A stretch of DNA of 64,000 bases from Tubulanus polymorphus (GCF_964204645.1 NC_134028.1:15135653-15199652), one strand, 5' to 3'; numbered from the stretch's first letter, positions 1 to 51,261 are shown. Made by a program: numbers and translations. The notes: a model not told the origin generated them from the letters alone.

Positions 1-667
1 TAAAATTATTAAAATGTGGAATACAAGGTTTGAAATCACATTCAGCTAAATTATAATTTATTTGAGTTCCAAATCGTTTGACATTTTTTAATGGTAAAAT
101 ATTTAATAAACCAGAATTACAAATTGTATCTTTAGTTGCTTCGAATGTTTTTGTAGGATCAATTAAATTACAACAAATATAGAAGTGCGTAAAAGGTATT
201 ATATTTGGTGTAGTATCAACATTTGAATAAACTTTATTTGGATTAACTCCTAGCATTTTAGCTAATGGTTTTCTTACTATGAATTTATATTGTTCATTAG
301 TTAACTTTATTCTTATTTTATTAGTACTATCAATTTTATTAAATTTAATGTTAAACCCAACAGATTCACCCACTTTTAACCGAGCTCTTCTATTAATTTC
401 TTGAGATAATGTTTCTCAATTATATAATCCTGGTCTTAGAAATAGATGATACCATTTATCCATATTTTTATCATGAATCATAAACAATCTATGATCAAAA
501 CTTTTAATCGATATATTGTAAAAAGAATTACATAAACTTATATTAACTAATTTTAAATCAACACAATTCTTGAATTCTCTATCTAATTGAACTAATAAAT
601 TATGTGATTTATAATTTGTAAGTTTTCTAGAATCTACAAATATTCTGTATTCTTTTAAATCCACCAT
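1..667 (-). pseudogene. Polinton minor capsid protein (penton-like), copy 1, premature stop at 416
   Basis: Homologous to 31652..32408. The N-terminus has the IFVDS...ISLCNSFYNI pattern typical of Polinton minor capsid proteins. Confidence 0.7.
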
Positions 668-681
668 TTATTTTACATATT

Positions 682-1035
682 TTATTCGAAATCTATTTCA
701 TGGTGCCCTTTTTCATTCTTACCTTTGTATACGAAATAGAAATCTCCAGAACATAATTCTTCTAGATCTTCACTTGATAATCTATGAAATCTATCTGGTA
801 AATATGTTCTGAATTTATACGTATTTCCTTTTAATCCTTCATATTCTAAGTGTATAACTAATTTATCTCCATATTTGTTAGTAACTGTAACAATATCTGT
901 AATTAGATATTTCTTATGGATTGTTAATTCTTTTAACTTCTTAAATTTATAATCTACTGATTTGACATTTGAAGTATCTTTTATTCTATCTAGAAATAAT
1001 TTGTTGTTCTCACTGTGCGCTTGTTTACTCTCCAT
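682..1035 (-). CDS. Conserved 117-aa Polinton protein (beta-rich, putative OB-fold/ssDNA-binding)
   Basis: Intact ORF directly downstream of PolB, with KLKEL..KKYLIT..V..KYG..LV..L...YLPDRF. The paralog at 32426..32779 has an in-frame stop. The fold is inferred only. Confidence 0.6.
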   Translation of the reverse strand: MESKQAHSENNKLFLDRIKDTSNVKSVDYKFKKLKELTIHKKYLITDIVTVTNKYGDKLVIHLEYEGLKGNTYKFRTYLPDRFHRLSSEDLEELCSGDFYFVYKGKNEKGHHEIDFE

Positions 1036-3558
1036 TTATAATACATATTTTTATTAAAATTTGATTAACACGTTAGAATTCTTTTCATTATCTCGTTCTC
1101 TTTTGTTTCTTCTCTTTTAAATTTTAAGTATTCATCTAAATTACAACCATAAGCAACTGTATGAATTCCATCATCTAAAATATATCTTTTATCATCAAAA
1201 GGGTTTAGACTTATCTTTTCAATTTCTTCAATAAACATTTCATGATCTTCAGATCTTAAACATCTCATCTTATGTTTTCTAACTTCTTCATTGAATATAC
1301 AATTGATGTAATCTTTGAAATGAATATTCTTTTCTACTAGACTTTTGGTTATTCCTTTTAACTTTTTAGCTTCATGTTCTTTAGTTTTATATGAATACAT
1401 TTTAGATCTAATACCGATGAATTCAATCATTTCTTCACCACCTAATTCATCTTTGAATTTACCAGGAACGTTTTTATTATCATTGCTAAACAATTCATGA
1501 TTTTTAGGATAATTACTGAAATCAAAATGATGTTTTAATGTTTTTAAATCATCTGTTATGTTATAAGTTTTTATCTTTAATATGTAACTGTCAGCATCAA
1601 AATATAAGATTTCTATATCTTTTTCTCCAAAAAGTGGTTGTAATACATTATAATAGAATTCATACATTAGTAATTTTGATAATTCTAAAACTGAAACTCC
1701 AACATAAATTGGTTTATTAAATGTCATTGATGTTCTTCTCATTTTAAATGCGGCTAAATTTTCATCAAATATTCTGTTACCTAAAAACTTAGGATATGAT
1801 TGTAAATGCCTTATCCTTTTGCCATTACTTACTAACTCAATATCATTTCTATTTCTAATATTTTCACAAGTCTTACCATAGAATGCATTATTCATTAGTT
1901 TGAAGAAATCTTTCTCAAAATCAGTTTTAGCTTTAGTTCTCTGTTTGGTGTTAAAATCTATATATTTTTCTAACCACTTAGATTGACTGAATGAAATATA
2001 ACTATGTACTTTTTTTACGATCATTCCTTGTTTTAGATAAAACTTTAACATTCTATAATGTACTACATAATTATATTTATCTTCTTGAGTTACCATTAAC
2101 TTTACTGTATGAATATGATTTTCAGGTTTAATTCTTTTTTGATAATTTGATAATTCTTCATGAGTTACAGTTTTATGTTCTGGACAGTATGCTAGATTTC
2201 TAGATTCAAATTTAATATGTTCAGGATATTCTAAATCTACAACAAAGAAGCAACCAGTATCTGAATCATCTGCAATATCTAGGATTCTTTTCTTCCAATC
2301 AAATTTATCATTATTTTCATGTTGTGAAACTTCACTTATTTCAAATACTCCATAAGGTTGTGGTTCCATCATTGCCCAACCATATAGATTATTTGCATCT
2401 ATATATAATAATTTATATCCGGGGTTATCATTTACATTGAAATATCTATCACCTAATACACCTGAAACACCTCCTCTTATAGATTTTTCAAATAATAATA
2501 ATTGATCTATATTTGTTAACAAATCAATTTTCATATCTGTAAATTTTAATCCACAATCCCATGTTAAACCTGGACTAGAATAACAATGACATGGATCAAT
2601 GTTAAAATATTTTAGGTTTACATCTCTAAACCTTTCGAATATATCGGTTAATAATAATACATCTGATTTTAGATATGAATCTACTAATTGTCCATGATTT
2701 TCTATTTTGAAATGATTCCAAATATTCAATGTTCTATTATAGACTTCATCTTTAACATATTCATTTTTTAATTCATCATCGAATTGTTCTTTCAATAATT
2801 CAGTTATGTTAAAATCATTATGATTTTTATAGACAGAATATGGAATTGCGCCTTTACATCTCATTAATTGAAAATCATCATTATTTGGGTAGTGTTGTTT
2901 TAATATTTTTAATTCATCATCAACTAATGATTTTGATAAGTTATCTATATTTTATATTTAAAAATCTATATGAATCTATAAATCCTAGGCAACCAAATTG
3001 GAATGATTTATAATTCTCAGATGTTCTAGCTAACATTTTAAATTTATAAGTTGGTATTTTATCTTTTGATCTATTTGAATTTAATCTTTCTATTTCATTA
3101 TTAATTTCTTCTATTTTATGACATAACTGTTTGATAAATAAATGTGCATCATATCCTGATAGATTATGAAATATAATGGTACAAAGTTAATTTTCTTAGC
3201 TTGTAAGTTACAATTCTCATGTGCAGCGCCTCTAAACTTTCCATTCAAATGATCATGGTCTCTTACTTTTTTATCTTTATAATTAAATATCTTTTCACAA
3301 TAATAACATTTATCTGCAAACTCAAATGCTTCTTTATCTTCTTCTGTCATTATAATTTCTATATTTTTATTTAACTTTTCATTAAATCTTATTTCATATT
3401 CAATTAATAAGTCACAAAAATGATTGATAACATTTTCATTTCTATAATGATAATATTCACTTTCAATTAGTTCTGGATAATCAGATTTAATATACAACCC
3501 GAAAGCAGCAGCTGATTGATGAATCTTTTTAATAGTATTTGTTATTTGCGGTTCATCT

Positions 3559-3981: not shown

Positions 3982-4132
3982 CAGCACCTCCTAAACATCC
4001 GTATCAGACGGTGTTTGAAAATATAACGATATCATATTACAAAGATTACATGATTACTTCAAATACATATTATTGTCGTATCAAATATAAGTAATTATCT
4101 CGCACATACAAATACAAATTTAATCAAGATAA

Positions 4133-9625: not shown

Positions 9626-9654
9626 GATGAGCTTTCGAGTAATTCAAACTATAA

Positions 9655-10077: not shown

Positions 10078-11321
10078 CATCTGAAAAATCATTTTCATTA
10101 GAATTTAATTTCTTTCTTTTATAATATATTTCTTTTCTATCTTGATCAGTTAGTTCTTTATTTAATGATTCAAAATCTCCATATATTACAAATGGTACTT
10201 TATTTTTGTAATCATATTTTTTGAATTCTAATATTTTATCCTTTTCATTTGGTAAAACTAATCTACAATAATCTACATGATTTGCACATAATTGTTTATG
10301 ATTTAATAATGTACTTTCATTACTGAATCTATGTAAACATTTTCTACAAAGATATAATCTTCAACTGGGTGTAAGCAACTTATAATTGCCCATAGAAAAC
10401 ATTTATCATCAAAATTTTGTACATTTATTACAGCATTAGTTTTAAATGGTAGTTTAATATAACTCGATGCTTCAATATCTGGTTCTTTATAATATGATAC
10501 ATTATTTTCATCAATTGGTATCGATTTAGTTAACTTTTTACATTTTGTGTTATAAACATGTGAAGTCATAAATATTATTTCATCAAATATTACACCAGAT
10601 CCTTCAAAATATTTCTCTTCTATTTTAGTTTTTACTTCATTATAACATTTATCTAATTTATCATCTATATGTTGTTTAGATATAATATGTTGTGAATGAG
10701 AATTTATATTATATATTGGTTTATCTTCGGATTTTATGAATTTAACTTTAGAAGATATACTTATTTTAGGATATTCAACATCAGTTATTATTTTTATAAT
10801 TTTTTTTCATATTTTCTAAATGTTTTTTATTTTCTTCTCATGTTTTTCCTTTATGAAATTTAAGCTCGATAGATGCTGGGCCAATATCACTTTTAAATGC
10901 TTCGGTTATCTCTATATATTTTTTTAATAATCTAATGAATTAATATAATTTCTTACATCTTCCATGTATGGTCTTTTATTGTTTAATTTATTTTCATTCT
11001 TTTAATTGTCTTATGTTTCTTATCATTGTCATTATCAAAATAATCTTCACCTAAAATATCATTATTCATATTTCTAATATGGCTTTTAGATTTTAAATGT
11101 TCATTATAATATCTTTTATCACTGAATGATTGATTACATGTATCACATTTGTATGTTTCTTTTTCATTTTTTAATTCTTCTAATTTAGTTCCTAATATAT
11201 CATCTTTATATTCTAATTTCAATTTATTCTCTAAATGTGTTTTAGTTTTATTGTGTCTTGATTTTTGGGATTTATCTATATTGATATTACATGTTGGACA
11301 GTAGTACTTATTTGCTTCCAT

Positions 11322-11742
11322 TTTAATACTAAATTTTTTTTTTAAATTGATTTTAGAAGTTCAATGATTTATATATGTATTATTTCAATCACACTTTACT
11401 AACACTTTTAATGTTTAAAAATCTAACTCATAAAAATATAAATATTGAAATAATGTTTAAAATATATCTATATATCTATTCTATAAGAGCTCACACTTTT
11501 ATATTGAATAATCTATCAATTTAAATGTTATTCATGTAAATGAATATTTTAAGAGTAATAGGGGTAATGGGCTTTCAGGCTAAAGGTTGAAGGGGCGAGT
11601 GAGTAAAAAATGAAAATAACAATAATTTCCAGTTGAATTAGGAGTGTGCGCGACTTATTCAACTGGAAATTATTGTTATTTTCATTTTTTTACGAGCTCG
11701 ACCCTTCGACCTTTGGCCTGAAAGCCCATTACCCCTATTACT
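11322..11742. repeat. Polinton terminal inverted repeat (copy 1), including a 189-bp imperfect terminal hairpin at 11554..11742
   Basis: 11322..11600 is the reverse complement of ~19005..19258 (the opposite end of copy 2). AGTAATAGGGGTAATGGGCTTTCAGG..CCTGAAAGCCCATTACCCCTATTACT folds back. Confidence 0.85.
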
Positions 11743-18868: not shown

Positions 18869-19258
18869 ATTTATTCACAATACACAAATTCATATAATCA
18901 AATATATTTTAATAATAATAATTATTCTATTATTCAACTGAAATACACACGGTTATGAAAATATATTATAGTTTTAAATTACTTTTAATGTTTGTTTTTA
19001 ATGAACTCGACCATTCAACCTTTTACCTGAAAGCCCATTACCCCTATTATTCTTAAAATAATCATATACATGAATAACATTTAAATTGACATATTATTCA
19101 ATATAAAAGTATATATTTACAACATTATTTCAATATTCATATTTGTATGAGTTAGATTTTTAAACATTAAAAGTGTTAGTTAAGTGTGATTGAAATAATA
19201 CATGATATAAATCATTGAACTTCTAAAATCAATTTTAGTAAAAAAATATGTATAATAA

Positions 19259-19927
19259 ATGGAATCAGAACAACCACAAACTATCAATATTACAAATAAC
19301 ACTGGTGTCATAAATATATACTACAAGAAGTGTTCTAAATGTGAATTAGATAAATTAGCTTTAACAGAATTTAGTAAGCGTAAGATTAGCAAAGATGGTT
19401 TTCAATATTGCTGTAAAACTTGTTTTAAACTATATACCAAACAATACAGAGAAGATAATAGAGAAGCTTATAATGATCATATGACAGAATATATGAGAGA
19501 AAGATATCAAACAGATCTTAATTTTAGATTGAAACAATGCTTAAGATCTAAATTAACACAATTATTCAACAAAGAAACACATTCAGAAACACTATCTAAT
19601 TTATTGGGTTGTTCAGATGAATTCTTAAAATCATGGATAATATATCAATTCGATGATAAAATGAATATAGATAATTATGGTGAATACTTTCATATTGATC
19701 ACGTGTTGCCTATTTCTAAATTTGACATGAGTGATGATTATAATAAGAAGCTAATATGGAACTGGAAAAATTTAAGGCCTTTAGAAAAGAAGGAAAATAT
19801 AATTAAATCTAATAAACTAGATTTACAGTTATATTTAGATCAACTGGATAAAGCAAAGACATTTGTTGAATTATGGAATAGTATTTCACAGAATCAACCG
19901 CATTCTGAGGTTTTAATCAGTGGTTAG
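19259..19927 (+). CDS. Zn-ribbon + HNH-type endonuclease-like protein
   Basis: N-terminal CSKC..CKTC. The C-terminal FHIDHVLP...NLRPL...EN..KSNK resembles the HNH nucleases of large DNA viruses and phages. Confidence 0.7.
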   Translation: MESEQPQTINITNNTGVINIYYKKCSKCELDKLALTEFSKRKISKDGFQYCCKTCFKLYTKQYREDNREAYNDHMTEYMRERYQTDLNFRLKQCLRSKLTQLFNKETHSETLSNLLGCSDEFLKSWIIYQFDDKMNIDNYGEYFHIDHVLPISKFDMSDDYNKKLIWNWKNLRPLEKKENIIKSNKLDLQLYLDQLDKAKTFVELWNSISQNQPHSEVLISG

Positions 19928-20264
19928 AAATTGGCAATTCTATTTGAGCTTTGTATGTATATAATACATAGCTTTTGCTTACTATTTAAACATATGTTGC
20001 CAAATATATCTTGTTTTCAATTCTAAAGAATTAATTAACTTCATCATAAAGAACATCTGTGCAGAAATAATTAGTTTGGTCGAACGTGCGCCACGTCGGC
20101 AGTTAGAAATCAACTTTCACATACATAGTACGTATTGGATATTCTCTCTCAAAACACAGTTTACAGTTCTAAATCTAAATGTAAGTACATATATTATGAA
20201 GTAGGGAAAGCTTTAAACATATTTAAGTCCAGTAATTCATTTTCACGACATCTTTTAGATTAAA

Positions 20265-20721
20265 ATGGAACACAAAGATCAACCAGAAATTCTAAGCCAA
20301 CCAACGGATGAGGAACGATTGCTACTGGATAGTGAAACTCAGGAATCAATAGAAATGGAGGATAAAATTCTCGTAATTGACGAACAAACTTCACAAAAAT
20401 TACAAGAACATTTGGATTATCATCAAAGAAATGGTGAAAATTCTGAGTGATGTAATACATAATAAACAATTACCGCGCGAACTACAATTACCAAAATTAC
20501 CAGCAACGCGACTTAAATTGCTGTTGGGACTTAAAGAATCGAAAACTAAGAAAATGAGTAGAGATATCAGTGCCGGTTTTGAAAGAAAACTGATAAGAGT
20601 AGGTAGATTAATAAAATATGAAAAATTCAAAATATTAGGATTAGCATTTAGTGAAGTAGTCGGATATTTACCAGAAATTGAAGAAATGATTGTAAACAAT
20701 CCAGTAATTAAAGAATTCTGA
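20265..20721 (+). CDS. Hypothetical Polinton ORF(s), possibly one frameshifted gene or two overlapping small ORFs
   Basis: ORFs 20265..20450 and 20377..20721 lie inside the element; no recognisable motif. Confidence 0.35.
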
Positions 20722-20829
20722 ACAATATTATGAATTATAACACTGAAGGTCTTAGTAATATAGATATCAAAAAATGTAATCTCGATTGTATATATCTGTT
20801 TTAATATTGTATTGATTACTGTTAACTAA

Positions 20830-21430
20830 GTATTGCGCAATAACCGGTCCGATTGGACCGCTTTTCTATTGTTCTCCATTGTTCTATTATCGATCGTTGT
20901 TAATGGCGTGGGTTGTTCTGTATCGATTGTTTACTGTTAACTAAGTATTGCGCAATAACCGGTCCGATTGGACCGCTTTTCTATTGTTCTCCATTGTTCT
21001 ATTATCGATCGTTGTTAATGGCGGCGGTTGTTCTGTATTGATTGTTTACTGTTAACTAAGTATTGCGCAATAACCGGTCCGATTGGACCGCTTTTCTATT
21101 GTTCTCCATTGTTCTATTATTGATCGTTGTTGACGGAAACAGCTGCTCAGTATTGATTGGTTACAGTTCTATGTTTGAATGTTGTAGTTTACAGAATAAA
21201 AATATAACTGTGTATTGCGCAATAACCGGTCCGATTGAACCGCTTTTCTATTGTTCTCCATTGTTCTATTATTGATCGTTGTTGACGAAAACAGTTGCTC
21301 AATATTGATTGGTTACATTTCTATGTTTGAATGTTGTAGTTTACAGAATGAAAATATAACTGTGTATTGCGCAATAACCGGTCCGATTGAACCGCTTTTC
21401 TATTGTTCTCCATTGTTCTATTATCGATCG
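20830..21430. repeat. Five palindrome-rich ~70-bp repeats with 115/115/152/152-bp periods inside the Polinton
   Basis: Core GTATTGCGCAATAACCGGTCCGATTGRACCGCTTTTCTATTGTTCTCCATTGTTCTATTATYGATCG at 20830, 20945, 21060, 21212 and 21364. Confidence 0.9.
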
Positions 21431-21637
21431 CTAAAATTTACATAATAAATATATGTGTTTATGAAATAATATTTCCACCAGTCGTTTCGTTGAATTGATT
21501 TTCAGTTGAGGATTTATTATCGAGGATCCGAAATGACTTATCAAAAGCAGCGAGGAATGAAAAAGGATGACGTTAGTCGAAGAAATGGAAGAGGATTCTA
21601 AAATATTAATCAATCTTATTAAAAATTTGATTTATAA

Positions 21638-21853
21638 ATGGAAAGGAATGATGAATACAATAAAAAACTTATTTGGACTTGAAAAATTTAAGACCTCTTG
21701 AAAAGAAAGAAAATAAAATCAAATCTAATAAACTAGATTTACAGTTATATTTAGAACAGTTAACAAAGGCAAAGAAATTTATTGATCAATGGAACAATGA
21801 TCCAAATAATGAACTATACGTTGAGGAATTTGATATCAAGGATCCGAAATGAC
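21638..21853 (+). pseudogene. Partial duplicate of the HNH ORF C-terminus
   Basis: AAATCTAATAAACTAGATTTACAGTTATATTTAGA and the NLRPLEKKEN-coding region are shared with ~19770..19840. Confidence 0.75.
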
Positions 21854-22150
21854 TTATCTGGACAGTTATAATTACTGCTCCTAATAGATAAACAAAAGTA
21901 GTGAGATATCAAATAGAATTCAAATAAAGTATATTAAAAATCACATATCTTCAACTAGCTAGTATTAGTTATTGTTTTTTTAATACTTTCTTTTCAAAAA
22001 GAATACTTTCTATCACAAATAAAAAATACTAAAAAAACAATAACTAATACTAAAATTCTTTACCTTTAACTAAGCTAGTATTAACCTAAAGAGATACTAG
22101 TATCATTTTATAAAACTTATATTTTTTTTTCGGTTTTTTCTCTAATATAA

Positions 22151-22819
22151 ATGTCAAAGAAATCGAGTAAGAATAGTATTGATATTGAAAAGACATTAGA
22201 TGATTTGGGTATAAGTGATAATAAAGATACAGTTTGGTCTTAGATCTTAAGACTGATCTTAAGTTGTTAGATTGGCTATAGAACTAAGTTGGTCTTAACT
22301 AATTGTGCTCAAGTTAATTGTAATATAGATTATGAATACTATTTATATTGTAAGCATCATCTAGAACTATTGATTGCCGGTGGAAAAACTAAAGAGTTTT
22401 TAAATAGAATTATTACTTTTCAAGAATTAGATGCTATGAAACCAGATAAAGTAATAAAATATTTTAAGATTTATGAAGAGGCAAGATTAGCCCGAATAAA
22501 CGATTCTATTTCAGATGGTATTGTCAAATGTTATTCTAAGTTATGTAACCAGTTAATACCAATTGATGATGAAAATAAATTATATACTGATTTGAAAAAT
22601 GACTACTTAGTTATGACTGAATTACAAAAATGGGTTGGTTATGCTTCATTTCAATTAGGATCGGTTATGACATTAATTTCTACCGGCGTCATAACATTTT
22701 CGAACATCAAACCTATGGAATATAAATCAGGTAAGAATGAAACAGATGACGCTGTACTACAACCAAACACCGAAACAGAAAATGAATCAGAACAAAAATT
22801 AACTAAAATAAATGAGTGA
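22151..22819 (+). pseudogene. Hypothetical Polinton protein with a hydrophobic segment (frameshift near 22235)
   Basis: TAAATG start at 22151; ORF 22289..22819 contains VGYASFQLGSVMTLISTGVITF. Confidence 0.55.
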
Positions 22820-23180
22820 TGGAGTTAAGAAAAAGGCTAGATCCAAGAAACAAATTAAATGGGCAAGAGAATTGGGTAAAAGATCTTCAGAATTAAAAAA
22901 AGCTAAGAAAAAGAAATTAACTGATATAAATGAATCACAGACTTTATCTGATATTAATTCAAATAATAATCCATCTGATTCTTCTAATAGTGGAAGAAAT
23001 AATTACTTATATATTACAATTGGGTTAATCACAATTATTATATTCTCTGGTGTAATATATAAATCAAAATTCAAATCTGATGATAAATATGATTCCAATG
23101 ACAATAAACCTATTATACCAGAAAATAAGTCAAATCATAAAGTCATTGAAACTAAATCTAAATTATTATTAATGGATTAA
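22812..23180 (+). CDS. Basic single-pass membrane protein (122 aa)
   Basis: Lys/Arg-rich N-terminus; hydrophobic YLYITIGLITIIIFSGVIY. Confidence 0.6.
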   Translation: MSDGVKKKARSKKQIKWARELGKRSSELKKAKKKKLTDINESQTLSDINSNNNPSDSSNSGRNNYLYITIGLITIIIFSGVIYKSKFKSDDKYDSNDNKPIIPENKSNHKVIETKSKLLLMD

Positions 23181-23186
23181 AATAAG

Positions 23187-24265
23187 ATGAAAAAAGAACA
23201 ATATTTAAGAGTTTATATTATAACCCAGAAAGTGAAGTATCATATTCTAGCGTTTCAGAATTATGGGGTAAAATTAAATCTGATAAAGAAAATGGTAATA
23301 TAAAGTATAGTGAATTGAAATCATGGTTACAAAATCAACCAACATATCAAATCCACAAGAAAATGGATAAAATTTATCTAACAAGAAAAGTTATGGTTTC
23401 ATATATCGATCAACAATGGCAAGCAGATTGAATTGATATAAAGAACTTAGAAGAACACAACAAAGGATATTTCTGGATATTAAATGTTATAGATATATTC
23501 AGTCGATACGCATGGTCAATTCCAATCAAAAATAAAACTGGAATAGAAGTAACAAATGCTTTTAAATCTATATTTAAAGAAGCTATTCCAGATAAGATAC
23601 AATTTGATGAAGGTAAGGAATTCTATAACAAACATTTTAAAAAACTATTATCTGATAACGATGTAGAGTATTTTTCAACACACTCAGATAAAAAAGCATC
23701 TATTATAGAAAGATTTAATAAAACATTGAAAACTAGAATGTGGAAACATTTTACTGCTAATGAAACATATAAATATATCGATGTGTTAGATGATTTAGTG
23801 AAAGGTTATAATAATTCTAAACATTCAAGTATTGGTATGAAACCTATACAAGCTAGAAAAGAAGATAATTCAGAAATAGTTTGGAATAATTTATATGGCG
23901 CATTTGTTACACATGATTTCGGTGAACCTAAATTTAAAATAGGACAACACGTAAGAATATCTAAATATAGAAAAACATTTTATAAAGGTTATACCCCAAA
24001 TTTTACAGAAGAAATATTCAAGATTAAAAAGATAATATTAACTAAACCATTTGTTTATAAATTAGAAGATTTAAAAGATGAAGAAATATTAGGTTATTTC
24101 TATGAAAAAGAACTATCACTTGTACCAAATCCAGATGAAATAGAATACTAAATAGAAAAAGTATTGAAAACAAAAACTCTTAAAGGAAAAAAGTATTCTT
24201 TAGTGAAATATAAAGGATATGATGATTTAATGAATGGATTTTATCTAGTAAAATTAAAAGAATAA
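23187..24265 (+). pseudogene. Retroviral-like (rve) Polinton integrase with C-terminal chromodomain; stops and frameshifts
   Basis: QWQAD, VIDIFSRYAW, QFDEGKEF, ASIIERFNKTLK; C-terminal IEKVLK..KYSLVKYKGY. Confidence 0.93.
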
Positions 24266-24879
24266 ATGAATAAAGATTTATTCATATTCGAACCGCATAA
24301 TATGTTAATAACTGGAGAAACCAATTGTGGTAAAACACATTTCATATTAGATTTGTTAGAAACTATTTATAAGAATCATTTTGATAACATAATATTATTC
24401 TGTCCTACTTATGAAATGAATAAAACATATAATAGAGATATAGTTAAGATGAAAAAGTTTATTATTTATTAGATCCTAAAACAGTAAAAGAAAATTTAGA
24501 TAATTGTATAAAAATAGCAATTGATACTTATAAAGGATCAAATACATAATTCATTATAGATGATTGCGCTAATTTACATGATTCAAAAGTGAGAGAAAGT
24601 GAGTTATGTTATCTAGCTTTCTCTGGGAGACATTTTGGGATAACAACATGGGTTTTAAATCAAAAATATAATTCAATTGTTAAAGACTTTAGGGAGAATA
24701 TAAGATTTCTAGTTTTATTTTATAACAAAGATAAAAAATCTATGCAACAATCATTGGAGGAAAATCAAATTATACCTACTGAATTACATGATGAATATAT
24801 GAATAAATTAAAGAATAATAAAGGTTCAAAATTATTACTGAGATTACAATTTCCCTATGAATATAAGTTTATAAAATAA
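24266..24879 (+). pseudogene. A32/FtsK-HerA-type DNA packaging ATPase
   Basis: Walker A GETNCGKT, Walker B FIIDD, and SGRHFGITTWVLNQ; broken by stops. Confidence 0.92.
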
Positions 24880-25235
24880 CTATTTATATATCTATCTATC
24901 TAATACGTATTAAATACGTATTAGATACGTATTAAATACATTAATACTTAAAACCCCATTTTTAAAATAAATATTATTCATATAATTTTCAACCAATTTA
25001 TTTTTATTTTTTTTCAACTAATATATGAATAAGTTTGAAAATAATAAAGGTTATTTATTATTACTGAGGTTTCAATATAAATTTAAAAAAGAAATATAAT
25101 TTACGGTATTTTAAATAATATGTATTAAATACGTATTATATACGTATTAGATATGTATTAAATACGTATTAGATACCTTAATACTTAAAACCCCCTTTTT
25201 TATTTACTATTATTTTATACAATTTTCAACCTTTA

Positions 25236-26123
25236 TTACTTTTTGAGTGTTAGATAATTACTTTCTGAATCACTTTCATCATCACTCTCCAATTCATCAT
25301 CAGACCCTAACAATTTATTCAAATGCTGTACCGTATCTTCATAAATAATTGGTTTATTGATATACTTATTAGTCATCTCAACTATATCTTTATTTTCTGA
25401 TTTAAGTTTCATAGAATCTTTTTTATCAATGCGCTTTCCTGTAACTATATCTTCATTATTATCTTTATTAGTGTTTGCTCCTAATATTTAATTTACAATG
25501 TTTGATTCTAATTTAATAGCATCGGTTAAATCTAATTCATCTGTATTAGGTGTTGCTAATAATAAATCTTCATATAATTCTTTACCATTTACATTTGATT
25601 TGAAACAAACTTTGTAACATATCTAAATGGGTGTTCTATAAATTCTTTTTTACCAACACGATCTATAACATTAGTAATATGTACCTTTGTATTAATATGA
25701 TTATTCCAATTTGATGGAGCGTTTGAAAATTCACCTTTACAATATCCACAATAATTTCTATTTTCACTAACATTTAATATTATTGCATTATTAAATGTAG
25801 AAGGTATTACATCATTAGATGTAGAAGGTATTACATTATTAGATGTAGTAGGTATTACATTATTAGATGTAGAAGGTATTACATTATTAGATGTAGAAGG
25901 TATTACATTACTAGATGTAGAAGGTATTACATTATTATCAATTACATTACTTAAATTATCAACAACACCACTTTTATTATTATCGATTTCTATTAGTTTT
26001 ATAAATTTTGAAAATAGGATCAAATATCAAAGCTATATTACAAGGTATTACATAACATAAATCATCATTATTTTCATGTGTATCGATGTATGGAATATGT
26101 TTATATACTTTACCTCCTTCCAT
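25236..26123 (-). pseudogene. Hypothetical protein with (NNVIPSTS)n repeats and a C2H2-like finger
   Basis: 24-bp coding repeats at ~25790..25945; CGYC...HINTKVH; TAAATG start at 26123. Confidence 0.55.
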
Positions 26124-26155
26124 TTATTATATAAATTTTTATTAAAGTTAAAATT

Positions 26156-27350
26156 TTAATACATAACACTATTCAATTGAGAATTTACAGTATTTTATTG
26201 CGCGTCAGATATAATATAAATGTGCATTTTGAAATTTTTGATTCCTTTATTCTTTGTCATGAATAATTGTATTCCATCTTTAGTGTTCTGTAATTTTTTT
26301 CCAGAACCATGTAATGAATTATCCTCTGTTGTTCTAAAATCTAACCATAATGCATATTTATTACCGGTATAATAATCAATTTGATTAATGTTACAATTTT
26401 CAGATGATTTTACTTTTTCATTCATAAAATGTTTTCTAATTTCTGGCAATTGATCAATCATTCTCATTCCTTGACAAAATATTTTATTTGCTATTCCTTC
26501 GATAGTTATTACTACTTTTGTTATTTCAGGATTATAATAATTATCAACATTTATTGCGCCATTAGTATATGTTGCAATGGTAAAAAATATTAATATACCT
26601 TTTATAGATCTTCTTGGGAAGTTAATATTCTCATTAATAATTTAATCATTTGCATTAATAGTTACGGTTTTAAATATATCAATATAATCATATAATAATG
26701 AAAATCCTTGATTGTATTTAGTTTGAATTATACTTGAAATATTTTCATCAGTTACTGTATCATATTCTAAACATATATTCGATAATTTATAACTCATATC
26801 TTTATTAACGCTAGATATTACAATTTCATTTACAGGAGCAAATGTTATTTCGAATATAACGTCTTCTTGAATTGCGTATTTATATAAAGGTGCATTGTTA
26901 TTTATCAATTCAAAGTCTAATGGAATTTTATATTTGCTTCCATATATACTTTTTATCAATTTATCTACAGCATTAGTTAATATTGCATTATGTGCTTCTG
27001 ATCTTAATTTATTTTGGTTTTCTGATTGGATGCCTTGAAATATCATATTATTTCTATTTTCTTTAGTTAACCATAAATCTTTATAATGCATAAATAAATT
27101 ATAATCATCTAATGAGAACATTATCAACAACATAATTATTATTATTACCGATTACTTTTATATCGGCTGATGAATAAATACTATTTGGAACATAAAAAGT
27201 ATTTTGTGTTAATCGAGGAATTCTAACATATAAAGTTTCATCGGGATTAATATTAGAAGGGTTATGAGTAATTATATGATGTGATCTTTCTGCTTTAATA
27301 GCATTAGATATTCTATGATTCTTAGAAGGATTGATATAACTTCCACTCAT
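26156..27350 (-). pseudogene. Major capsid protein (double jelly-roll, hexon-like), fragmented
   Basis: About 400 codons reconstructed from 27105..27350, 26642..27133 and 26195..26467. Beta-rich motifs (NPSNINPDETLYVRIP, YKIPLDF, ICLEYD), size and context fit a Polinton MCP. Confidence 0.7.
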
Positions 27351-27370
27351 TTATTTAACAAAAAAATTAA

Positions 27371-28822
27371 TTATATATTTTTTATCATGTTTACTAGCCC
27401 AAAAATAATAGCACTTACAACTGTAATTAAAAATAAAATAATATGTTCAGCAGCAAAGCTAATAATGTTTCCTGCAGATTTCAATATAAAACCAACAATT
27501 GATGCAATAACTCCTGGTAAAGCTGCGGCAGATTTTTTAGATAGTTCCCATAAATATTTTGCTAATTTCTTTAAACCATCCTTAACTTTATCTTGTATAG
27601 AATTATTACCATTCGGGGGTTTATCCGGTTTATTGGGAGTAGGAGTAGATTTCAGTGAATTTGATATAGCTAAACCTATTGTTGTAAATACCATAGTTAC
27701 TGCTGTTAGAATTGAAAGAATTGTGATTCCTTCAAACTTAAATAATAATTTTATTCTATCTTTCAATGATATTTCAGAATTTGGTTTAATTATTAAATCT
27801 TTAACAACAACTTTTAATCTATTTATACAATAATCATATGATTTGTTTAATAATTTAATTTCTTCTTTCTGAAATTCTCTGTTATATTCTAAATTATCAA
27901 TTTCTTCTTCTAAATATGCATTTCTTTTTTTAAATTCAATTTCTTCAATAACTTTATTATCTCTATCTAATTTTAATTGTTCTGATTCTTTTCTTGATTT
28001 AAATAATTCATCTTCTAAAGTTCTAGTTTTAAAATCTCTTATACTTTTATCATGCGCAAATTTATCAGCTTTATTTTGTATACTAATGATTTCTCTAATT
28101 GCTTTATCAGAAAATATATTTAAATCTTCTAATTCTTGTTTTGTTGCATCAAGTAATCCATTTGGTAAAAGTTTTTCAGTTTGAACTCCTCTTGAATTAG
28201 GTTTACTAGTTTTGGAAGTTATATTCTGTTCAGAAGTTGTTTCTGTTTCTAAATTATTATCGATTGTTTCAAATAATTCATTAATTCTTTGTTTAAATAC
28301 TCTTTCATTTTTAATAATTTCTTCTTGTGTTACATCTTCTATTTCATTACTATTTCTTATTCTTTTAATTCTTGATAGGTCTAACTTAAGCAAAGTTGAT
28401 TCTGCTAATATTTTTTCTTGTTTTTTATAAGAGATATCAATATAATAATCATCTTTCAAACGATAATAATATTCACCATCTAAAAACTTTAATTCTTGTA
28501 CTAAAAGTCTAGCGCCTCTGGCATTTATATTATATCCAGATTTTTCAAATATAGGTTTGAAATTATAAATATATTCATTATATTCTAAATTTTGTTTTAC
28601 TAAATCTGGATTTTCATTTTCAGGATTTATTCTCGATCTAGTTCTTCTATCAAATTCATCTGTTGATGGGCCTTTAGAACCACTATCTGCTAAATTAGAA
28701 TTATATGCTGATTCATCATCATTATCAATATTAGTTTCTGCATCATTATAATCATCATCAATATATCCCTCATTATTATTTCCCATTTCTCCCAATGGAA
28801 TATCTTCTCCATCTTCTGCCAT
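27371..28822 (-). CDS. 483-aa acidic/coiled-coil protein with C-terminal transmembrane segments
   Basis: Intact ORF; long heptad-rich middle; hydrophobic ITILSILTAVTMVFTTIGLAI and IILFLITVVSAIIFGLV. Confidence 0.75.
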   Translation of the reverse strand: MAEDGEDIPLGEMGNNNEGYIDDDYNDAETNIDNDDESAYNSNLADSGSKGPSTDEFDRRTRSRINPENENPDLVKQNLEYNEYIYNFKPIFEKSGYNINARGARLLVQELKFLDGEYYYRLKDDYYIDISYKKQEKILAESTLLKLDLSRIKRIRNSNEIEDVTQEEIIKNERVFKQRINELFETIDNNLETETTSEQNITSKTSKPNSRGVQTEKLLPNGLLDATKQELEDLNIFSDKAIREIISIQNKADKFAHDKSIRDFKTRTLEDELFKSRKESEQLKLDRDNKVIEEIEFKKRNAYLEEEIDNLEYNREFQKEEIKLLNKSYDYCINRLKVVVKDLIIKPNSEISLKDRIKLLFKFEGITILSILTAVTMVFTTIGLAISNSLKSTPTPNKPDKPPNGNNSIQDKVKDGLKKLAKYLWELSKKSAAALPGVIASIVGFILKSAGNIISFAAEHIILFLITVVSAIIFGLVNMIKNI

Positions 28823-28838
28823 TTACATAATAAAAAAA

Positions 28839-30165
28839 TCAAAATTTAAAATATAATATTCCTCCGATTACAATTCCTATACAAGTTATAGCTAATTTAG
28901 TATTTTCATGGGATTTATTATCATCATTTAGTTTAATTATATCATGTTGAATAATATCAGTTTTTATATTTTCTGATGTATTGTAATCTTTTATTTTAGA
29001 ATCATTATGCAATTTAATATTTTTAGTTTTAGTTTCTGTTGATTGAATGTGTTTTTTATTTTTTTCACCTTCCATTAATTTTGGAGCAGTAATAATCTTT
29101 TTATTTATATCATTTAATCCAAATGAATTATTTATTGTTGCAGTTTTAATTAGATTATTGTAACCAATTATATTTCCCATCTTTAATACTAAATCATTAG
29201 AAATAATTAATAGATTAGGGCCTATACAATAATTTAATCTAATATGTGATTTATCTAAATAATTTTGATGTCTTACAATGTTTTCTGGAATCGATCTATT
29301 TTTATCATTATGAATGGAATCTTCAAATAATACTTTAAACTGTTTCTGCGCATCGAATGAAGTGTTATCATTTCCAATTATTGGGGATCTTGTTTCAACT
29401 TGCGCACCTAAAATACATATCAAATAAGTTCTAATAGATTGATTTATTCTTTGTATACCAGCTTTAGTAAAACCTCCACTATTTTCTAAAATGAAATTAA
29501 CCCAACCATTATTGTTTTGTTGTTGTATATTATTATAATATTTTGGTAATTCATTCCAATTTAGTGTTCTTATATCTGAATTTGTCATTATTTTTCCAAA
29601 TTCTTTAGTATATAATATTCCTAATCCACCCATTGTTCCAATTTTTGCTCTAAAATCTTTATTTGAATTAATATTAAATTCATTACATATTTTATAAAAC
29701 TTAGAAAAATTAAAATTATTATTCAATTCTTTTAAAATATTTTGAACCTGGTAAAGGACATTCTAATTCATCTAATATTAATTTTATTTGAAAATATGTA
29801 TGAAATCTAAAAAGTGATAACATCAATGGTAAACTTGGTTTGTTTAAATGATCATTCCAACTAATTCCGCATCCTGTTGTTGCGCAATAAACTGCAAAAT
29901 TTAATTGGTTCTGCCAATACTTCATATTAGATTTTAATAACCATTGTTTTGCCTCATTTAAATTTTTGAAATTAATTGTATACACATGAAATATATTTTC
30001 CATCTTTACATGAAAATTATTACTTTCAGTAACATAAATATATAAATCAATTAATGAATTTAAAACTTCATTTCTATATGTTATATCTTTATTAAAATCT
30101 ATTGCTGGAATATTATATTTAATTGATTTATTATATTGGAAAGCTTTTGGAAAACTATCTGCCAT
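28839..30165 (-). pseudogene. Conserved Polinton protein with a C-terminal membrane anchor (probably one frameshifted gene)
   Basis: Overlapping ORFs 29719..30165 (WQNQLNFAVYCATTGCG) and 28839..29726 (ends LAITCIGIVIGGILYFKF); only the upstream ORF has a TAAATG start. Confidence 0.65.
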
Positions 30166-30189
30166 TTATATAACTAAAAAATTAATAAT

Positions 30190-30608
30190 TAACTAATTCT
30201 TTTAATAATTTATCTTGTTCTTCAACTGTTATATGGCCATTTAAACTTATTATATAATCTAGTGTATTATTTTAATTTATTAATTTCTTTTATATTAGTG
30301 TTAATTTTTTCTTTATTACTTTTTATATTTAATTTTGAACTTATACCGGTTAAAACACTTGAACTTAATCCTAATACGCCAATTCATATAGCTAAAGGTG
30401 TTAATGGGCTGAATATTGCTAGAAATGTTATTACAGAACTAATTGTAACCGAACCACTTATAATCAAATCGTATATAATTTTACTTTTTAAATATTTTTT
30501 CTTTTTAACTTTTAAATCATTTTCAAATTCTAATATTTGTTTTTCTAAATATGTTTTTAATTTAGTTTTATTTATATCATGAGGAATAATATCAATATTA
30601 TCATCAAT
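30190..30608 (-). pseudogene. Coiled-coil / two-TM / coiled-coil small membrane protein (SLATT-like topology)
   Basis: The minus frame reads ..LIISGSVTISSVITFLAIFSPLTPLAI*IGVLGLSSSVLTGIS..; the start context is mutated to TAAATTG. Confidence 0.5.
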
Positions 30609-30628
30609 TTATTTAGCAAAAAAAATTA

Positions 30629-31051
30629 CTAATTAGTAAACTTATAAGCAACAAATATAACAATAACTCTTCCACCTAAAATCCATATTATTTCATATTT
30701 CTGTTGTTCATTACTTGGGGTATAATAATCTGATATTGTAGGTTTATGTAGAGATAATTTTTCTTTATTGGTTACCGCGTTATATAAACTCATTGCATCA
30801 TCAACTGATTGAAAATCTCTATGTGAAATCTTCTGATCATATAATTCCTTGTTAAAATAATCCATATAGTTTTGTCTCTTTTCTCTATATTCTTCAGCTG
30901 CTTTATTATATTTCTCTAATGCTAAGTTATGTCTTTTTTGTTCTGTTAATGAACCATTTTTATCAATATGCTTGAATAAATAACCACCACCAGTAAATGC
31001 TAAAGCGTTAACAATTGCCGATCCTACAATAGTTATAACTGCAGAAGCCAT
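30629..31051 (-). CDS. 140-aa protein with hydrophobic N- and C-terminal segments (putative virion membrane protein)
   Basis: MASAVITIVGSAIVNALAFTGGGYLF, a helical middle, and IIWILGGRVIVIFVAY. Confidence 0.7.
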   Translation of the reverse strand: MASAVITIVGSAIVNALAFTGGGYLFKHIDKNGSLTEQKRHNLALEKYNKAAEEYREKRQNYMDYFNKELYDQKISHRDFQSVDDAMSLYNAVTNKEKLSLHKPTISDYYTPSNEQQKYEIIWILGGRVIVIFVAYKFTN

Positions 31052-31066
31052 TTATTTAGCAAAAAA

Positions 31067-31297
31067 TTATGCATTTATATGGGAGGAATATATTTTTGTT
31101 TTTCCAAATAATCAATAGTTAAATTAGATAAAGTAACTGCTAATGTTAATTTTAAAATATCATTTATATCAAATCTATCAACATTAACACTTCCCATTTT
31201 AAATACTTTTTTTTAATACCATTGAATAACCAACAGTTCCAACTGATAGTAATGCTCCATTATATAATCCAGTTGTTATCCACTTATTATCACTCAT
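31067..31297 (-). pseudogene. Small hydrophobic Polinton protein
   Basis: TAAATG start; MSDNKWITTGLYNGALLSVGTVGYSMVL; appears frameshifted. Confidence 0.45.
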
Positions 31298-31313
31298 TTA
31301 TTTATCAAAAAAA

Positions 31314-31635
31314 TTACTATCATCAAAATATTTAGTTATCTTAGTGATGATTAAATCAACATTTATTTCATTACTACTTTTATGATTATCATATATTTCA
31401 ATTATTATTTTTTAAATATCATCGATGATAAAATCTTCATCTAATTCATAAAATCTTAAAGATTCTCTAATTAAATTAGTTCTTTATCTATTGTTGTTTC
31501 ATACTCAAATGTTGTTTCATTAGAAAATGTAATATTTTTGATATGTGTAATTACATCAGTAATGTTAAATTTCATTTCTTTCTCATGTTTAAAATCAAAC
31601 CCAAAACATATACTCGGTCCAACAGTTATATTCAT
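31314..31635 (-). pseudogene. Small hypothetical Polinton protein
   Basis: TAAATG start MNITVGPSICFGFDF; fills the gap between neighbouring genes; frameshifted. Confidence 0.4.
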
Positions 31636-31651
31636 TTATATAGTGAAAAAA

Positions 31652-32408
31652 TTACTCTTTACATCTTATAACTAATTCATATATCACAGGAAAGTTATTC
31701 AAATCAATTAAATAACCATTATGATTTCTTATTTCTAATTTAAAATTATTGAAATGTGGAATACAAGGTTTGAAATGACATTCAGTTAAATTATAATTTA
31801 TTTGAGTTCCAAATTGTTTAACATTTTTTAGCGGTAAAATATTTAGTAAACTAGAACTATAAATTGTTTCTTTAGTTGCTTCGAAAGTTTTTGTAGGCTT
31901 GATTAAATTGCAATAAATATAAAAGTGTGTAAAAGGTATTATATTTGAGCTGCCTTCTGCGTTTCCAGTAACTGTAAGAGGTTTAATTCCTAACATTTTA
32001 GCCAGTGGTTTGTTTACCATAAATTTATGTTGTTCATTAGATATCTTCATTCTTATTTTATTAGTACTATCAATTTTATTAAATTTAATTTCAAATACAG
32101 AAGTGCCCCCGATTTTCAACCGAGCTCTTCTATTAATTTCCTGCGCTAATGATTCTAAATTATATAATCCTGGTTTTAAAAATATATGAAACCATTTATC
32201 TTTATTTCTCATATAAATCATAAACCCTCTATGTTCAAAAGTTTTATCTGATATATTATAAAAAGAATTTACATAAACTTATATTTACTAATTTTAAATC
32301 AACACAATTCTTGAATTCTCTATCTAATTGTACTAGTAAATTATGAGATTTATAATTTGTAAGTTTTCTTGAATCAACAAATATTCTGTATTCTTTTAAT
32401 TCCACCAT
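31652..32408 (-). pseudogene. Minor capsid protein (penton-like), copy 2, frameshift near 32268
   Basis: The C-terminal FYIYCNLI..LLNILP..LEIRNHNGYLIDLNNFPVIYEL pattern is typical of Polinton minor capsid proteins. Confidence 0.75.
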
Positions 32409-32425
32409 TTATTTTACATATTTTC

Positions 32426-32779
32426 TTATTCGAAATCTATTTCATGGTGCCCTTTTTCATTCTTACCTTTGTATACGAAATAGAAATCTCCAGAACATAA
32501 TTCTTCTAAATCTTCACTTGATAATCTATAAAATCTATCCGGTAAATATGTTCTGAATTTATGTGTATTTCCTTTTAATCCTTCATATTCTAAGTGTATA
32601 ACTAATTTATCTCCATAGTTATTAGTAACTGTAACAATATTTGTAATTAGATATTTCTTATGGATTGTTAATTCTGTTAACTTTTTGAATTTTTAATCTA
32701 CAGATTTTACATTTGTAGTATCTTTTATTCTATCTAGAAATGATTTGTTGTTCTCACTGTGTGTTTGTTTACTCTCCAT
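32426..32779 (-). pseudogene. Paralog of the 117-aa protein, in-frame stop
   Basis: Near-identical to 682..1035. Confidence 0.8.
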
Positions 32780-32808
32780 TTATAATACATATTTTTATTA
32801 AAATTTGA

Positions 32809-35800
32809 TTAACACGTTAGAATTCTTTTCATTATCTCGTTCTCTTTTGTTTCTTCTCTTTTAAATTTTAAGTATTCATCTAAATTACAACCATAAGCAA
32901 CTGTATGAATTCCATCATCTAAAATATATCTTTTATCATCAAATGGGTTTAGACTTATCTTTTCAATTTCTTCAATAAACATTTCATGATCTTCAGATCT
33001 TAAACATCTCATCTTATGTTTTCTAACTTCTTCATTGAATATACAATTGATGTAATCTTTGAAATGAATATTCTTTTCTACTACACTTTTGGTTATTCCT
33101 TTTAACTTTTTAGCTTCATGTTCTTTAGTTTTATATGAATACATTTTAGATCTAATACCTATGAATTCAATCATTTCTTCACCACCTAATTCATCTTTGA
33201 ATTTACCGGGAACTTTTTTATTATCATTGCTAAACAATTCATGATCTTTAGGATAATTACTGAAATCAAAATGATGTTTTAATGTTTTTAAATCATCAGT
33301 TATGTTATCAGTTTTTATCTTTAATATGTAAGAATCTGTATCAAAATATAATATTTCTATATGTTTTTCTCCAAAAAGTGGTTGTAATACATTATAATAG
33401 AATTCATACATTAGTAATTTTGATAATTCTAAAACTGAAGCGCCAACATAGATTGGTTTATTAAATTTCATTGATGTTCTTCTCATCTTAACTGCAGCTA
33501 AATTTTCATCAAATATTCTGTTACCAATGAACTTAGGATATGATTGTAAATGTCTAATTCTTTTGCCATTACTTACTAACTCAATATCATTTCTATTTCT
33601 AATATTTTCACAAGTCTTACCATAGAATGCATTATTCATTAACTTGAAGAAATCTTTCTCGAAATCAGTTTTAGCTTCAGTTCTCTGTTTGGTGTTATAA
33701 TCTATATATTTTTCTAACCACTTAGATTGACTAAATGAAATATATCTATGTACTTTTTTTAGAATCATTCCTTGTTTTAGATAAAACTTTAACATTCTAT
33801 AATGTACTACATAATTATATTTATCTTCTTGAGTTACCATTAACTTTTCTGTATGAATATGATTTTCGGGTTTAATTCTTTTTTGATAATTTGATAATTC
33901 TTCATGAGTTACAGTTTTATGTTCGGGACAGTATGCTAGATTTCTAGATTTAAATTTAATATGTTCAGGATATTCTAAATCTACAACAAAGAAGTAACCA
34001 GTATCTGAATCATCTGCAATATCTAGAATTCTTTTCTTCCAATCAAATTTATCATTATTTTCATTCTGTAAAACTTCAGTTAATTCAAATACTCCATAAG
34101 GTTGTGGTTCCATCATTGCCCAACCATACAAATTGTTTGCATCTATATATAATAACTTATATCCAGGATTATCATTTACATTGAAATATCTATCACCTAA
34201 TACACCTGAAACTCCTCCTCTTATAGATTTTTCAAACAATAGTAATTGATCTATATTTGTTAACGAATCCATTTTTATATCTGTAAATTTTAATCCACAA
34301 TCCCATGTTAAACCTGGACTTGAATAACAATGACAAGGATCAATATTGAAATATTTTAGGTTTACATCTCTAAACCTTTCGAATATATCGGTTAATAATA
34401 ATACATCTGATTTTAGATATGAATCTACTAATTGTCCATGATTTTCTATTTTGAAACACCAAATATTCAATGTTCTATTATATACTTCATCTTTAACATA
34501 TTCATTTTTTAATTCATCATAGAATTGTTCTTTCAATAATTCAGTTATGTTAAAATCATTATGATTTTTATAGAAAGAATATGGAATTGCTCCTGTATAT
34601 CTCATTAATTGGAAATCATCATTATTTGGGTAGTGTTGTTTTAATATTTTCAATTCATCATCAACTAATGATTTTGATAAGTTATCTAATGAACTATTTA
34701 AAAATCTATATGAATCTATAAATCTTAGGCAACCAAATGGGAATGATATATAATTCTCTGATGTTTTAGCTAACATTCTAGATTTATAAGTTGGTATTTT
34801 ATCCTTTGATCTATTTGAATTTAATCTTTCTATTTCATTATTGATTTCTTCTATCTTATGACATAACTGTTTGATGAATAAATGTGCATCATATCCTGAT
34901 AGATTATGAAATATAACTGGTACAAAGTTAATTTTCTTAGCTTGTAAGTTACAATTCTCATGTGCAGTGCCTCTAAACTTTCCATTCAAATGATCATGGT
35001 CTCTTACTTTTTTATCTTTATAATTAAATATCTTTTCACAATAATAACATTTATCTGCAAACTCAAATGCTTCTTTATCTTCTTCTGTCATTATAATTTC
35101 TATATTTGTATTCAATAATTTACTAAATCTTATTTCATATTCAATTAATAAGTCACAAAAATGATTGATAACATTTTCATTTCTGTAATGATAATATTCA
35201 CTTTCAATTAGTTCTGGATAATCAGATTTAATATATAACCCGAAAGCAGCAGCTGATTGATGAATCTTTTTAATAGTATTTGTTATTGGTGGTTCTTCTG
35301 AATAATCATTTTCATTAGAATTTAATTTCTTTCTCTTATAATATATTTCTTTTCTATCTTGATCAGTTAGTTCTTTATTTAATGATTCAAAATCTCCATA
35401 TATTACAAATGGTACTTTATTTTTGTAATCATATTTTTTGAATTCTAATATTTTATCCTTTTCATTTGGTAAAACTAATTTACAATAATCATGATTTTCA
35501 CATAATTGTTTATGATTTAATAATGTACTTTCATTACTAAATTTATGTAAACATTTTCTACATAGATATATTTCATGGTGGTCATTTTCTGATTTAAAAA
35601 ATAAATCGATTTGTTTAATCCACATATAATGATCGGTTCCTGAACTTCGCTGAAAAAGCTGAAACACTGAAAAGCTGAAACGCTGAAATAAAAACGCTGA
35701 AATTTCAGGGAATTTCCGAAAAACGCCGAAATTTCAGGGAATTCCCGAAAAACGCTGAAATCGTGCTAGGTACCGACAATACACGTTTTGAAATGTTTTC

Positions 35801-51258: not shown

Positions 51259-51261
51259 AAT

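Follow-up and report, generated by a model that had tools for sequence, protein, structure and literature searches.

Which RNA polymerase transcribes an animal Polinton whose genes start at sequences resembling poxvirus late promoters? The question is raised by a 64,000-nucleotide (nt) stretch of the genome of the ribbon worm Tubulanus polymorphus (GCF_964204645.1 NC_134028.1:15135653-15199652), here called the window, which contains a decayed Polinton at 19.0-35.9 kb. Analysis of this element and of its relatives revealed a real, clade-wide promoter signature of poxvirus type in an animal Polinton lineage. We consider it probable (roughly 0.58) that a pox-like helper virus supplies the cytoplasmic RNA polymerase that reads the Polinton and its capsid clade, and the clade is likely a virophage-like one.

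The original prediction, made from the sequence alone, listed 16 TAAATG sites over start codons and seven runs of six or seven T residues located 6-8 nt before TAAAT, and all of these were found to be present. An eighth T-run site, 30608(-), keeps TAAAT and has no start codon in this copy, while its homolog in the closest relative, L004, starts at TAAATG. Some of the 16 sites are not separate gene starts: the one at 21638 sits in a duplicate (80%) of part of the HNH gene interior (19712-19878), and those at 667 and 1035 are the starts 32408 and 32779 seen again in a second, 94% identical copy. Among homology-supported genes with a locatable start, 13 of 15 begin at TAAATG, compared with 30 of 638 other ATGs (p 5e-16; the background at 19200-35700 is 43 of 651 ATGs), the two remaining genes being the integrase (TAAGATG) and 30608. 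The signal is positional, since the window-wide count of TAAATG (108) hardly exceeds chance (91.8±9.2 expected; 6 of 100 shuffles reach 108). A tract of A residues followed by T residues (AnTm; at least 6 bases, 5-9 nt upstream) accompanies 12 of the 13 starts and none of the 29 other TAAATG sites in the element, by a pattern that was defined after the data had been seen. The tight packing predicted for the structural block was borne out, with gaps of 16-29 bp at seven junctions computed. The promoter-like sites are as follows:

19239..19261, + strand: A-run type, HNH gene
22131..22153, + strand: T-run type, first gene of the + block
22792..22814, + strand: A-run type, within the upstream coding sequence (8-nt overlap)
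24246..24268, + strand: packaging ATPase
26121..26143, - strand: A-run type, gene downstream of the capsid gene
27348..27370, - strand: T7 run, capsid gene
28820..28842, - strand: T7 run, gene for a protein of 483 amino acids (aa)
30163..30185, - strand: T6 run, gene 30165-28839
30606..30628, - strand: T-run (the eighth), start codon absent
31049..31071, - strand: T6 run, 140-aa gene
31295..31317, - strand: T7 run, small hydrophobic protein gene
31633..31655, - strand: T6 run
32777..32799, - strand: A-run type, immediately past the PolB stop

PolB and the integrase were originally described as lacking the motif, which holds in part. PolB starts at TAAAATG in two other copies of this element (11321- and 63860+). 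Its start in L003 is TAAATG, and so, probably, are those in L004 and L015, as placed by the N-terminal zinc-finger start. The PolB start lies in the terminal repeat, and the same repeat supplies the promoter of the 19259 gene. The integrase has TAAGATG in the window, but a TAAATG start in L006.

The distribution of the motif was then analyzed in 21 loci obtained from one metagenome scan with a capsid alignment, using one rule for open reading frames (ORFs) in all loci (longest non-nested, at least 60 aa, first ATG after a stop). In the 16 loci that grouped with the window (20-44% GC), 61 of 75 ORFs start at TAAATG, compared with 5.5±2.2, and a maximum of 13 in 500 draws, when the upstream 60 nt were shuffled and the same ORF rule was applied. 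In the five loci outside the clade, none of the 22 ORFs has such a start. The 14 clade ORFs without TAAATG were not examined singly; several appear broken or antisense. The clade contains three sets of near-duplicate loci, and dropping four loci leaves 47 TAAATG starts. The motif is retained down to ∼50% capsid identity. In the capsid tree, a branch with support of 99 separates the 14 TAAATG-labelled rows from the three negative ones; this is a quick tree of 40 rows, of which 23 are unlabelled, with support from the Shimodaira-Hasegawa-like approximate likelihood ratio test only, and with L019, L022, L023 and L024 absent. Helper transcription was initially proposed for the structural genes. 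These genes do carry the motif, but in the relatives it is also found at the genes for PolB, integrase, ATPase, HNH nuclease and nucleoside kinase, and its presence at non-structural genes fits the virophage-like reading better. The kinase gene of L004 (L004:10340-10981; deoxynucleoside kinase, PF01712, E 2e-31) has a T-run TAAATG start.

The base frequencies at the 61 clade starts define the layout of the signal: A at -18 (77%), T at -12 (90%), A at -4 (81%) and G at +4 (73%), with G or C nearly absent from -18 to -13 and a mixed spacer downstream, then TAAATG. The signal thus consists of an A/T tract (T at -12), 7-8 nt of spacer, and ATAAATG(G). T is found at -12 in 13 of 13 window starts, in 41 of the 47 clade starts that remain after removal of near-duplicates, and in 10 of 10 head-to-head starts; +4 is G in 35 of those 47. 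At internal TAAATG sites of the element, T occupies -12 in 12 of 29. T-run and A-run starts are variants of a single element: the A/T boundary of the AnTm tract shifts, and the T at -12 is fixed.

The motif could be a side effect of AT richness, of stop-start coupling or of a translation context, and the T-run a terminator of the upstream gene; the low GC content of the element (24%) and its short gaps are what such an explanation would expect. Nevertheless, the count in the clade is far above the shuffled null, and the motif is kept in clade loci of higher GC content (40-44%; 3 of 5 ORFs in L009, 3 of 4 in L010) and absent from sister loci of 29-30% GC (0 of 3 in each of L018 and L023). Overlap of a stop with the start (TAA-ATG), which had been named as a possible refutation, was excluded as the cause: the TAA of the motif is the stop of the upstream gene in 1 of 46 cases, and TAG and TGA are not among the most frequent triplets at -3. 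The sequence T5NT is under-represented on coding strands (observed/expected (O/E) 0.21-0.41), as a terminator might be, but it is depleted on the other strand and in the sister loci as well. Since T is at -12 in all head-to-head starts, the run belongs to the downstream start and not to an upstream terminator. We therefore regard a by-product as very improbable.

The loci outside the clade have start regions of another kind. In the sister loci (L020 whole, L018, L021 and L023), 14 of 22 ORFs have TATA[CG] no more than 25 nt from the ATG (null 1.7), compared with 0 of 75 ORFs of the TAAATG clade. This motif, chosen by eye from L020, lies 5-19 nt before the ATG and resembles the late initiator TATA, with short leaders, of African swine fever virus (ASFV). 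A 165-aa ORF of the sister Polinton L020 (L020:5082-5579) resembles VLTF3 (PF04947, E 3.6e-5, narrowly under the cut-off). A different Polinton, L003 (L003:719-8745), encodes a protease-like N-terminus fused to an integrase-chromodomain and a PolB with 32% identity to that of the window; its TAAATG starts possibly represent a second origin.

To judge the resemblance to poxviruses, the clade signal was compared with published promoters and with viral contigs. Vaccinia late promoters consist of a T-containing core, a spacer of 5-7 bp and TAAAT(G/A) (PMC5294985); TAAAT(G) overlies the start codon, and the tenth nucleotide upstream is a conserved T (PMC11980589). In the intermediate promoters, TAAA is preceded at 15-19 nt by an A/T-rich stretch (PMC11980589). 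Counted back from the T of TAAAT, the fixed T of the clade is base 9, and counted from the first A it is base 10, at most one base from the published position. As a poxvirus control we used L145, a 20-kb entomopoxvirus stretch (spheroidin, G9/A16, E10, L1R), where TAAATG is the start of 14 of 22 ORFs and position -4 is A in 85%. T was found at -12 in 10 of these 14 starts, or in 9 of 12 without two pattern-selected ones, compared with 17 of 63 TAAATG starts in 80 other viral loci (9/12 versus 17/63, p 0.002). Judged by sequence comparison, the clade signal is a match to the poxvirus late promoter in both of its parts and in their spacing. The label "pox" depends on the upstream T and on the spacing, because TAAATG alone occurs in non-pox contigs (one poxvirus stretch was tested); among the matches listed, the best long non-pox loci have 2 of 4, 2 of 5 and 4 of 10 such starts.

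These comparisons also bear on the identity of the polymerase, which might be cytoplasmic and derived from a large DNA virus other than a poxvirus (egovirus-, asfuvirus- or Megaviricetes-like). TAAATG starts in non-pox contigs would allow this, as would the TAAAN initiator with slippage used by yeast virus-like elements (PMC6211774), and the available text of the egovirus preprint (10.1101/2024.03.23.586382) contains no promoter description. However, T at -12 agrees with the poxvirus stretch and not with the other contigs, ASFV late starts are TATA with AU leaders (PMC7163114), and the promoter of Cafeteria roenbergensis virus (CroV) is TCTA. A helper of this kind seems quite unlikely.

Where transcription takes place may be reflected in two other features of the clade. 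A purine at -3 is the animal norm, and T at this position is poor for animal translation. T is present at -3 in 64 of 75 clade ORFs, while 15 of 22 sister ORFs have A; it would be a poor context unless slippage on AAA replaces it, as is the case in vaccinia and in yeast virus-like elements (PMC6211774). The second feature is AATAAA, which on coding strands occurs at 3.65/kb in the window element (O/E 1.01) and at 5.6/kb in AT-rich relatives (O/E 1.00; synonymous shuffles), compared with 2.96/kb in the poxvirus stretch and 0.18/kb in five host transposon ORFs; in the sister loci it is mildly depleted (O/E 0.56, z -2.4). As far as sequence features can tell, T at -3 and undepleted AATAAA both fit cytoplasmic transcription. 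The AATAAA evidence is supporting only, because base composition explains much of it. Splice donors showed no depletion in the clade.

Alternatively, the element could be autonomous and nuclear, with the tract and TAAAT forming a compact initiator for host RNA polymerase II (Pol II), perhaps together with a late factor from a related Polinton, and with the poxvirus resemblance due to descent or convergence. Its germ-line integration, likely in many copies (read depth mostly 300-850), agrees with this, and the VLTF3-like protein of L020 would be a candidate factor, VLTF3 being present in some coral polintoviruses (PMC11131425); adintovirus transcripts have also been reported in fish (PMC8502044). 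On the other hand, VLTF3 had no match among the window or clade ORFs scanned, T at -3 and the dense AATAAA on coding strands fit Pol II poorly, and a start on AAA would leave a leader of 0-2 nt, so that slippage would be needed for good translation. We consider nuclear transcription by Pol II unlikely.

Several observations weigh against a pox-like helper. No helper was found: among the rows listed (at least 120) in a head-to-head promoter scan of viral contigs, the candidate with genome-wide TAAATG was one entomopoxvirus record. To our knowledge, no poxvirus is known from ribbon worms, which also favors a helper from another virus group. The L145 control is one virus of 20 kb and 79% AT, and its 9 of 12 starts with T at -12 give only p 0.015 against a 40% T background. 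TAAATG starts are also found in non-pox contigs, for instance at an mRNA cap methyltransferase gene in L068, and such contigs have T at -13 in 31 of 63 starts (redundant rows included). L003, an unrelated Polinton, has TAAATG at 7 of 7 ORFs, yet the A/T tract at only 1 of 7. Typical Polintons with a 427-aa capsid were absent from the DNA comparison set. The contrast in AATAAA is mostly one of base composition (host ORFs: 45% GC; O/E 0.63, z -0.8), and internal TAAATG in coding DNA is not depleted (O/E 0.84-1.25). Finally, other adintoviruses are reportedly transcribed in fish tissues, and no helper is named in the available text (PMC8502044).

Transcription by a pox-like helper nevertheless remains our preferred reading. 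What stands of the virophage-like interpretation first proposed is that the motif is enriched, conserved and poxvirus-matching, and that RNA polymerase, capping and late-factor genes had no match among the window and clade ORFs scanned (the contigs are partial); its limitation to structural genes is lost. Under this reading, integrated copies would be silent until a helper infects the cell, and a freed copy of the element would reach the virus factory. There, the helper polymerase might start on AAA, slip, and add a poly(A) leader that replaces T at -3, and PolB, capsids and integrase would then come from the element itself, in the manner of mavirus with CroV. Shared late promoters are an accepted sign of virophage-helper pairing, and CroV transcribes mavirus (PMC8547959); polinton-like viruses (PLVs) have been found together with entomopoxviruses (PMC11296320). 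A more tentative extension, to which we give less than even odds, is that animal Polintons include endogenous virophages, each lineage promoter-keyed to a different large-virus helper: the TAAATG clade to an undiscovered marine pox-like virus, and the TATA[CG]/VLTF3-like sister clade to an asfuvirus-like one.

The gene content of the element was established from ORFs and their homologs:

19259..19927, + strand: HNH-type nuclease gene, 222 aa; homologs in L006, L010 and L019
21630..21794, + strand: duplicated internal piece of the HNH gene (80% copy of 19712-19878); its TAAATG at 21635 is no gene start
22151-22819, + strand: broken gene, first of the + block
23187..24247, + strand: rve integrase with chromodomain, broken, start TAAGATG; 66-84% identity to ORFs of L004-L007
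24266..24879, + strand: A32-like packaging ATPase, frameshifted; PF04665
26159..27350, - strand: double jelly-roll major capsid gene, broken (one frameshift, one stop); 73% to P0012
27371..28822, - strand: 483-aa gene, hydrophobic C-terminus, conserved in the clade and sister loci
30165-28839, - strand: broken gene (442 aa in L004)
start 31051, - strand: 140-aa gene
start 31297, - strand: small hydrophobic protein gene, frameshifted
31652..32408, - strand: penton (minor capsid) gene, frameshifted; start 32408 in an A-run promoter
32809..35658, - strand: Polinton PolB with an endonuclease-VII-like insert (PF02945), 5' part missing here

The element has the PolB, rve integrase, A32/FtsK-like ATPase, double jelly-roll capsid and penton expected of a Polinton/adintovirus, the capsid and penton folds being those of the closest intact homologs. 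The predicted model of the capsid relative P0012 (predicted local distance difference test (pLDDT) score 84.8) matches capsids of iridovirus, Paramecium bursaria chlorella virus 1 and virophages (best E 1e-15), and that of the L004 penton homolog (pLDDT 65.9) matches the mavirus penton (E 3e-8). The closest named relative of the window capsid is a clam protein (40%). The capsid is not of virophage type by domain matches: neither the first nor the two larger window capsid pieces had a Pfam match, whereas the capsid of L001 matches PF21915/PF22031. L001 (TAAATG at 0 of 16 ORFs) had been tried as a Polinton control and was dropped, its capsid being of Sputnik type. PolB is a 938-aa ORF with 32-45% identity to the PolBs of viral contigs L001-L003 and with the PF02945 insert; PF03175 had no match in it, and its features are those of a putative protein-primed polymerase. 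The L006 homologs support the other assignments, with rve and Chromo matches for the integrase and a weak PF01844 match for the HNH gene (E 0.0055). A Pfam scan of ORFs from the window and clade detected no maturation protease (neither the copy nor the contigs are complete, and a distant protease might escape), and the protease-like N-terminus of the L003 integrase ORF had no match in the window. The 483-aa protein gave no Pfam match and no informative ESM Atlas match, and none of the 12 loci compared had a homolog of the 20265 ORF. Close relatives in viral contigs were not found via the 140-aa gene, two capsid alignments or the VLTF3-like protein, and searches of genome contigs and phage records were empty. 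Capsid homologs labelled Bartonella are probably host carry-over.

This copy of the Polinton is dead, most of its genes being broken by stops or frameshifts, and its 24% GC contrasts with 38-43% in the host DNA around it. Additional copies lie in the window at 1-11.7 kb, 37.8-40.1 kb and 63.5-64 kb, and the element is likely multi-copy in the host genome (read depth ∼80-1,700 per bin, in one DNA run of 1.9 Gb reads with no single-copy baseline). An inverted repeat is common to the left and right ends across the copies, no one of which is intact:

18983..19267, + strand: left terminal inverted repeat remnant, with the promoter of the first gene; inverted match to 11313-11622
1..3558, - strand: second copy of 31741-35299 (94%), including the 667 and 1035 starts, split by a BEL/Pao retrotransposon
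11302..11742, - strand: right terminal repeat of the second copy; palindromic end, then the PolB start (A-run...TAAAATG) at 11321
63533..63862, + strand: another right terminal repeat, palindromic end, identical PolB start at 63860

The terminal repeat (11554-11742 and 63533-63800) ends in a long palindrome with arms of 57 and 129 nt, beginning AGTAATAGGG, which could form a hairpin end. The BEL/Pao retrotransposon (3559-9954) lies inside the PolB of the second copy and has direct repeats identical over the 300 nt compared; across 44% of the part searched, its polyprotein is 98% identical to a protein from Tubulanus polymorphus. A further copy is represented by rearranged PolB fragments at 37791-40130, within a large inverted repeat (36130-42775). 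Within the element itself, 20805-21430 is an array of 115- and 152-bp repeats with a 41-base GC-richer core, and the gene that follows the capsid gene has a 24-bp tandem repeat (25757-25972) encoding a stretch rich in Ser, Thr and Asn. At 22235-22297, inside the 22151 gene, reads end or loop back by the thousands, which suggests insertion of a common short repeat. Elsewhere in the window are a Gypsy-type long terminal repeat retrotransposon (49915-58608) and Myb/SANT and DDE_Tnp_4 ORFs (43123-43719 and 47736-48755), as typical of Harbinger transposons.

We found no report of a TAAATG motif in Polintons in the literature searched, subscription journals being largely outside the search; by term search, promoters are not mentioned in the available text of PMC8502044, PMC11131425, 10.1101/2024.03.23.586382 or 10.64898/2026.10.13.758929. 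A clade-wide promoter makes it testable whether animal Polintons are autonomous and nuclear or helper-dependent. The poxvirus-type signature predicts pox-like viruses in marine invertebrates and, if the helper reading is true, endogenous virophage systems would extend from protists to animal germ lines. If lineages are indeed keyed to their helpers, promoter motifs in animal genomes would record unseen giant-virus infections, and perhaps an inherited antiviral defence.

Among known systems, the element is most directly comparable with animal Polintons/Mavericks (adintoviruses, with Beta-type PolB in the sense of PMC8502044), with which it shares a PolB without a PF03175 match, an rve integrase with chromodomain, an A32-like ATPase, a double jelly-roll capsid, penton, putative terminal inverted repeats and probably many genomic copies. 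A maturation protease was not found among the ORFs scanned in the window element, which is incomplete, or in L004. The element differs from adintoviruses in its 24% GC within a region of 38-43% GC, and in the poxvirus-type promoter at nearly every gene, a point not addressed in the available text of PMC8502044 and PMC11131425. Poxvirus late and intermediate promoters share with the clade signal TAAAT(G) over the start, the common G at +4, a T-rich core with a fixed T, the short spacer and head-to-head use, and the A-rich variants and TAAAATG of the clade resemble the intermediate class as presented in PMC11980589. Unlike poxvirus promoters, the clade signal sits in an integrating 15-20 kb element without a polymerase, serves all gene classes, and has an activity that is predicted. 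Mavirus and the endogenous mavirus-like elements of Cafeteria (PMC8547959) are likewise integrating and encode rve and PolB, with one promoter motif that matches the late promoter of a large virus and with different motifs in different element types; the present clade is set apart by a capsid of the animal Polinton lineage, an animal host, a pox-type motif instead of TCTA, and a helper that is inferred. The entomopoxvirus-associated PLVs (PMC11296320) are proposed small-virus parasites of poxviruses in animals, and one relative is integrated in a beetle genome. Their proposed parasitism in insects rests on co-sequencing with occlusion bodies, and the main text, as far as available, contains no promoter analysis. 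Compared by description only, they differ from the TAAATG clade in that they encode a protease, their capsids are divergent, and they have either a tyrosine recombinase or no integrase that was detected.

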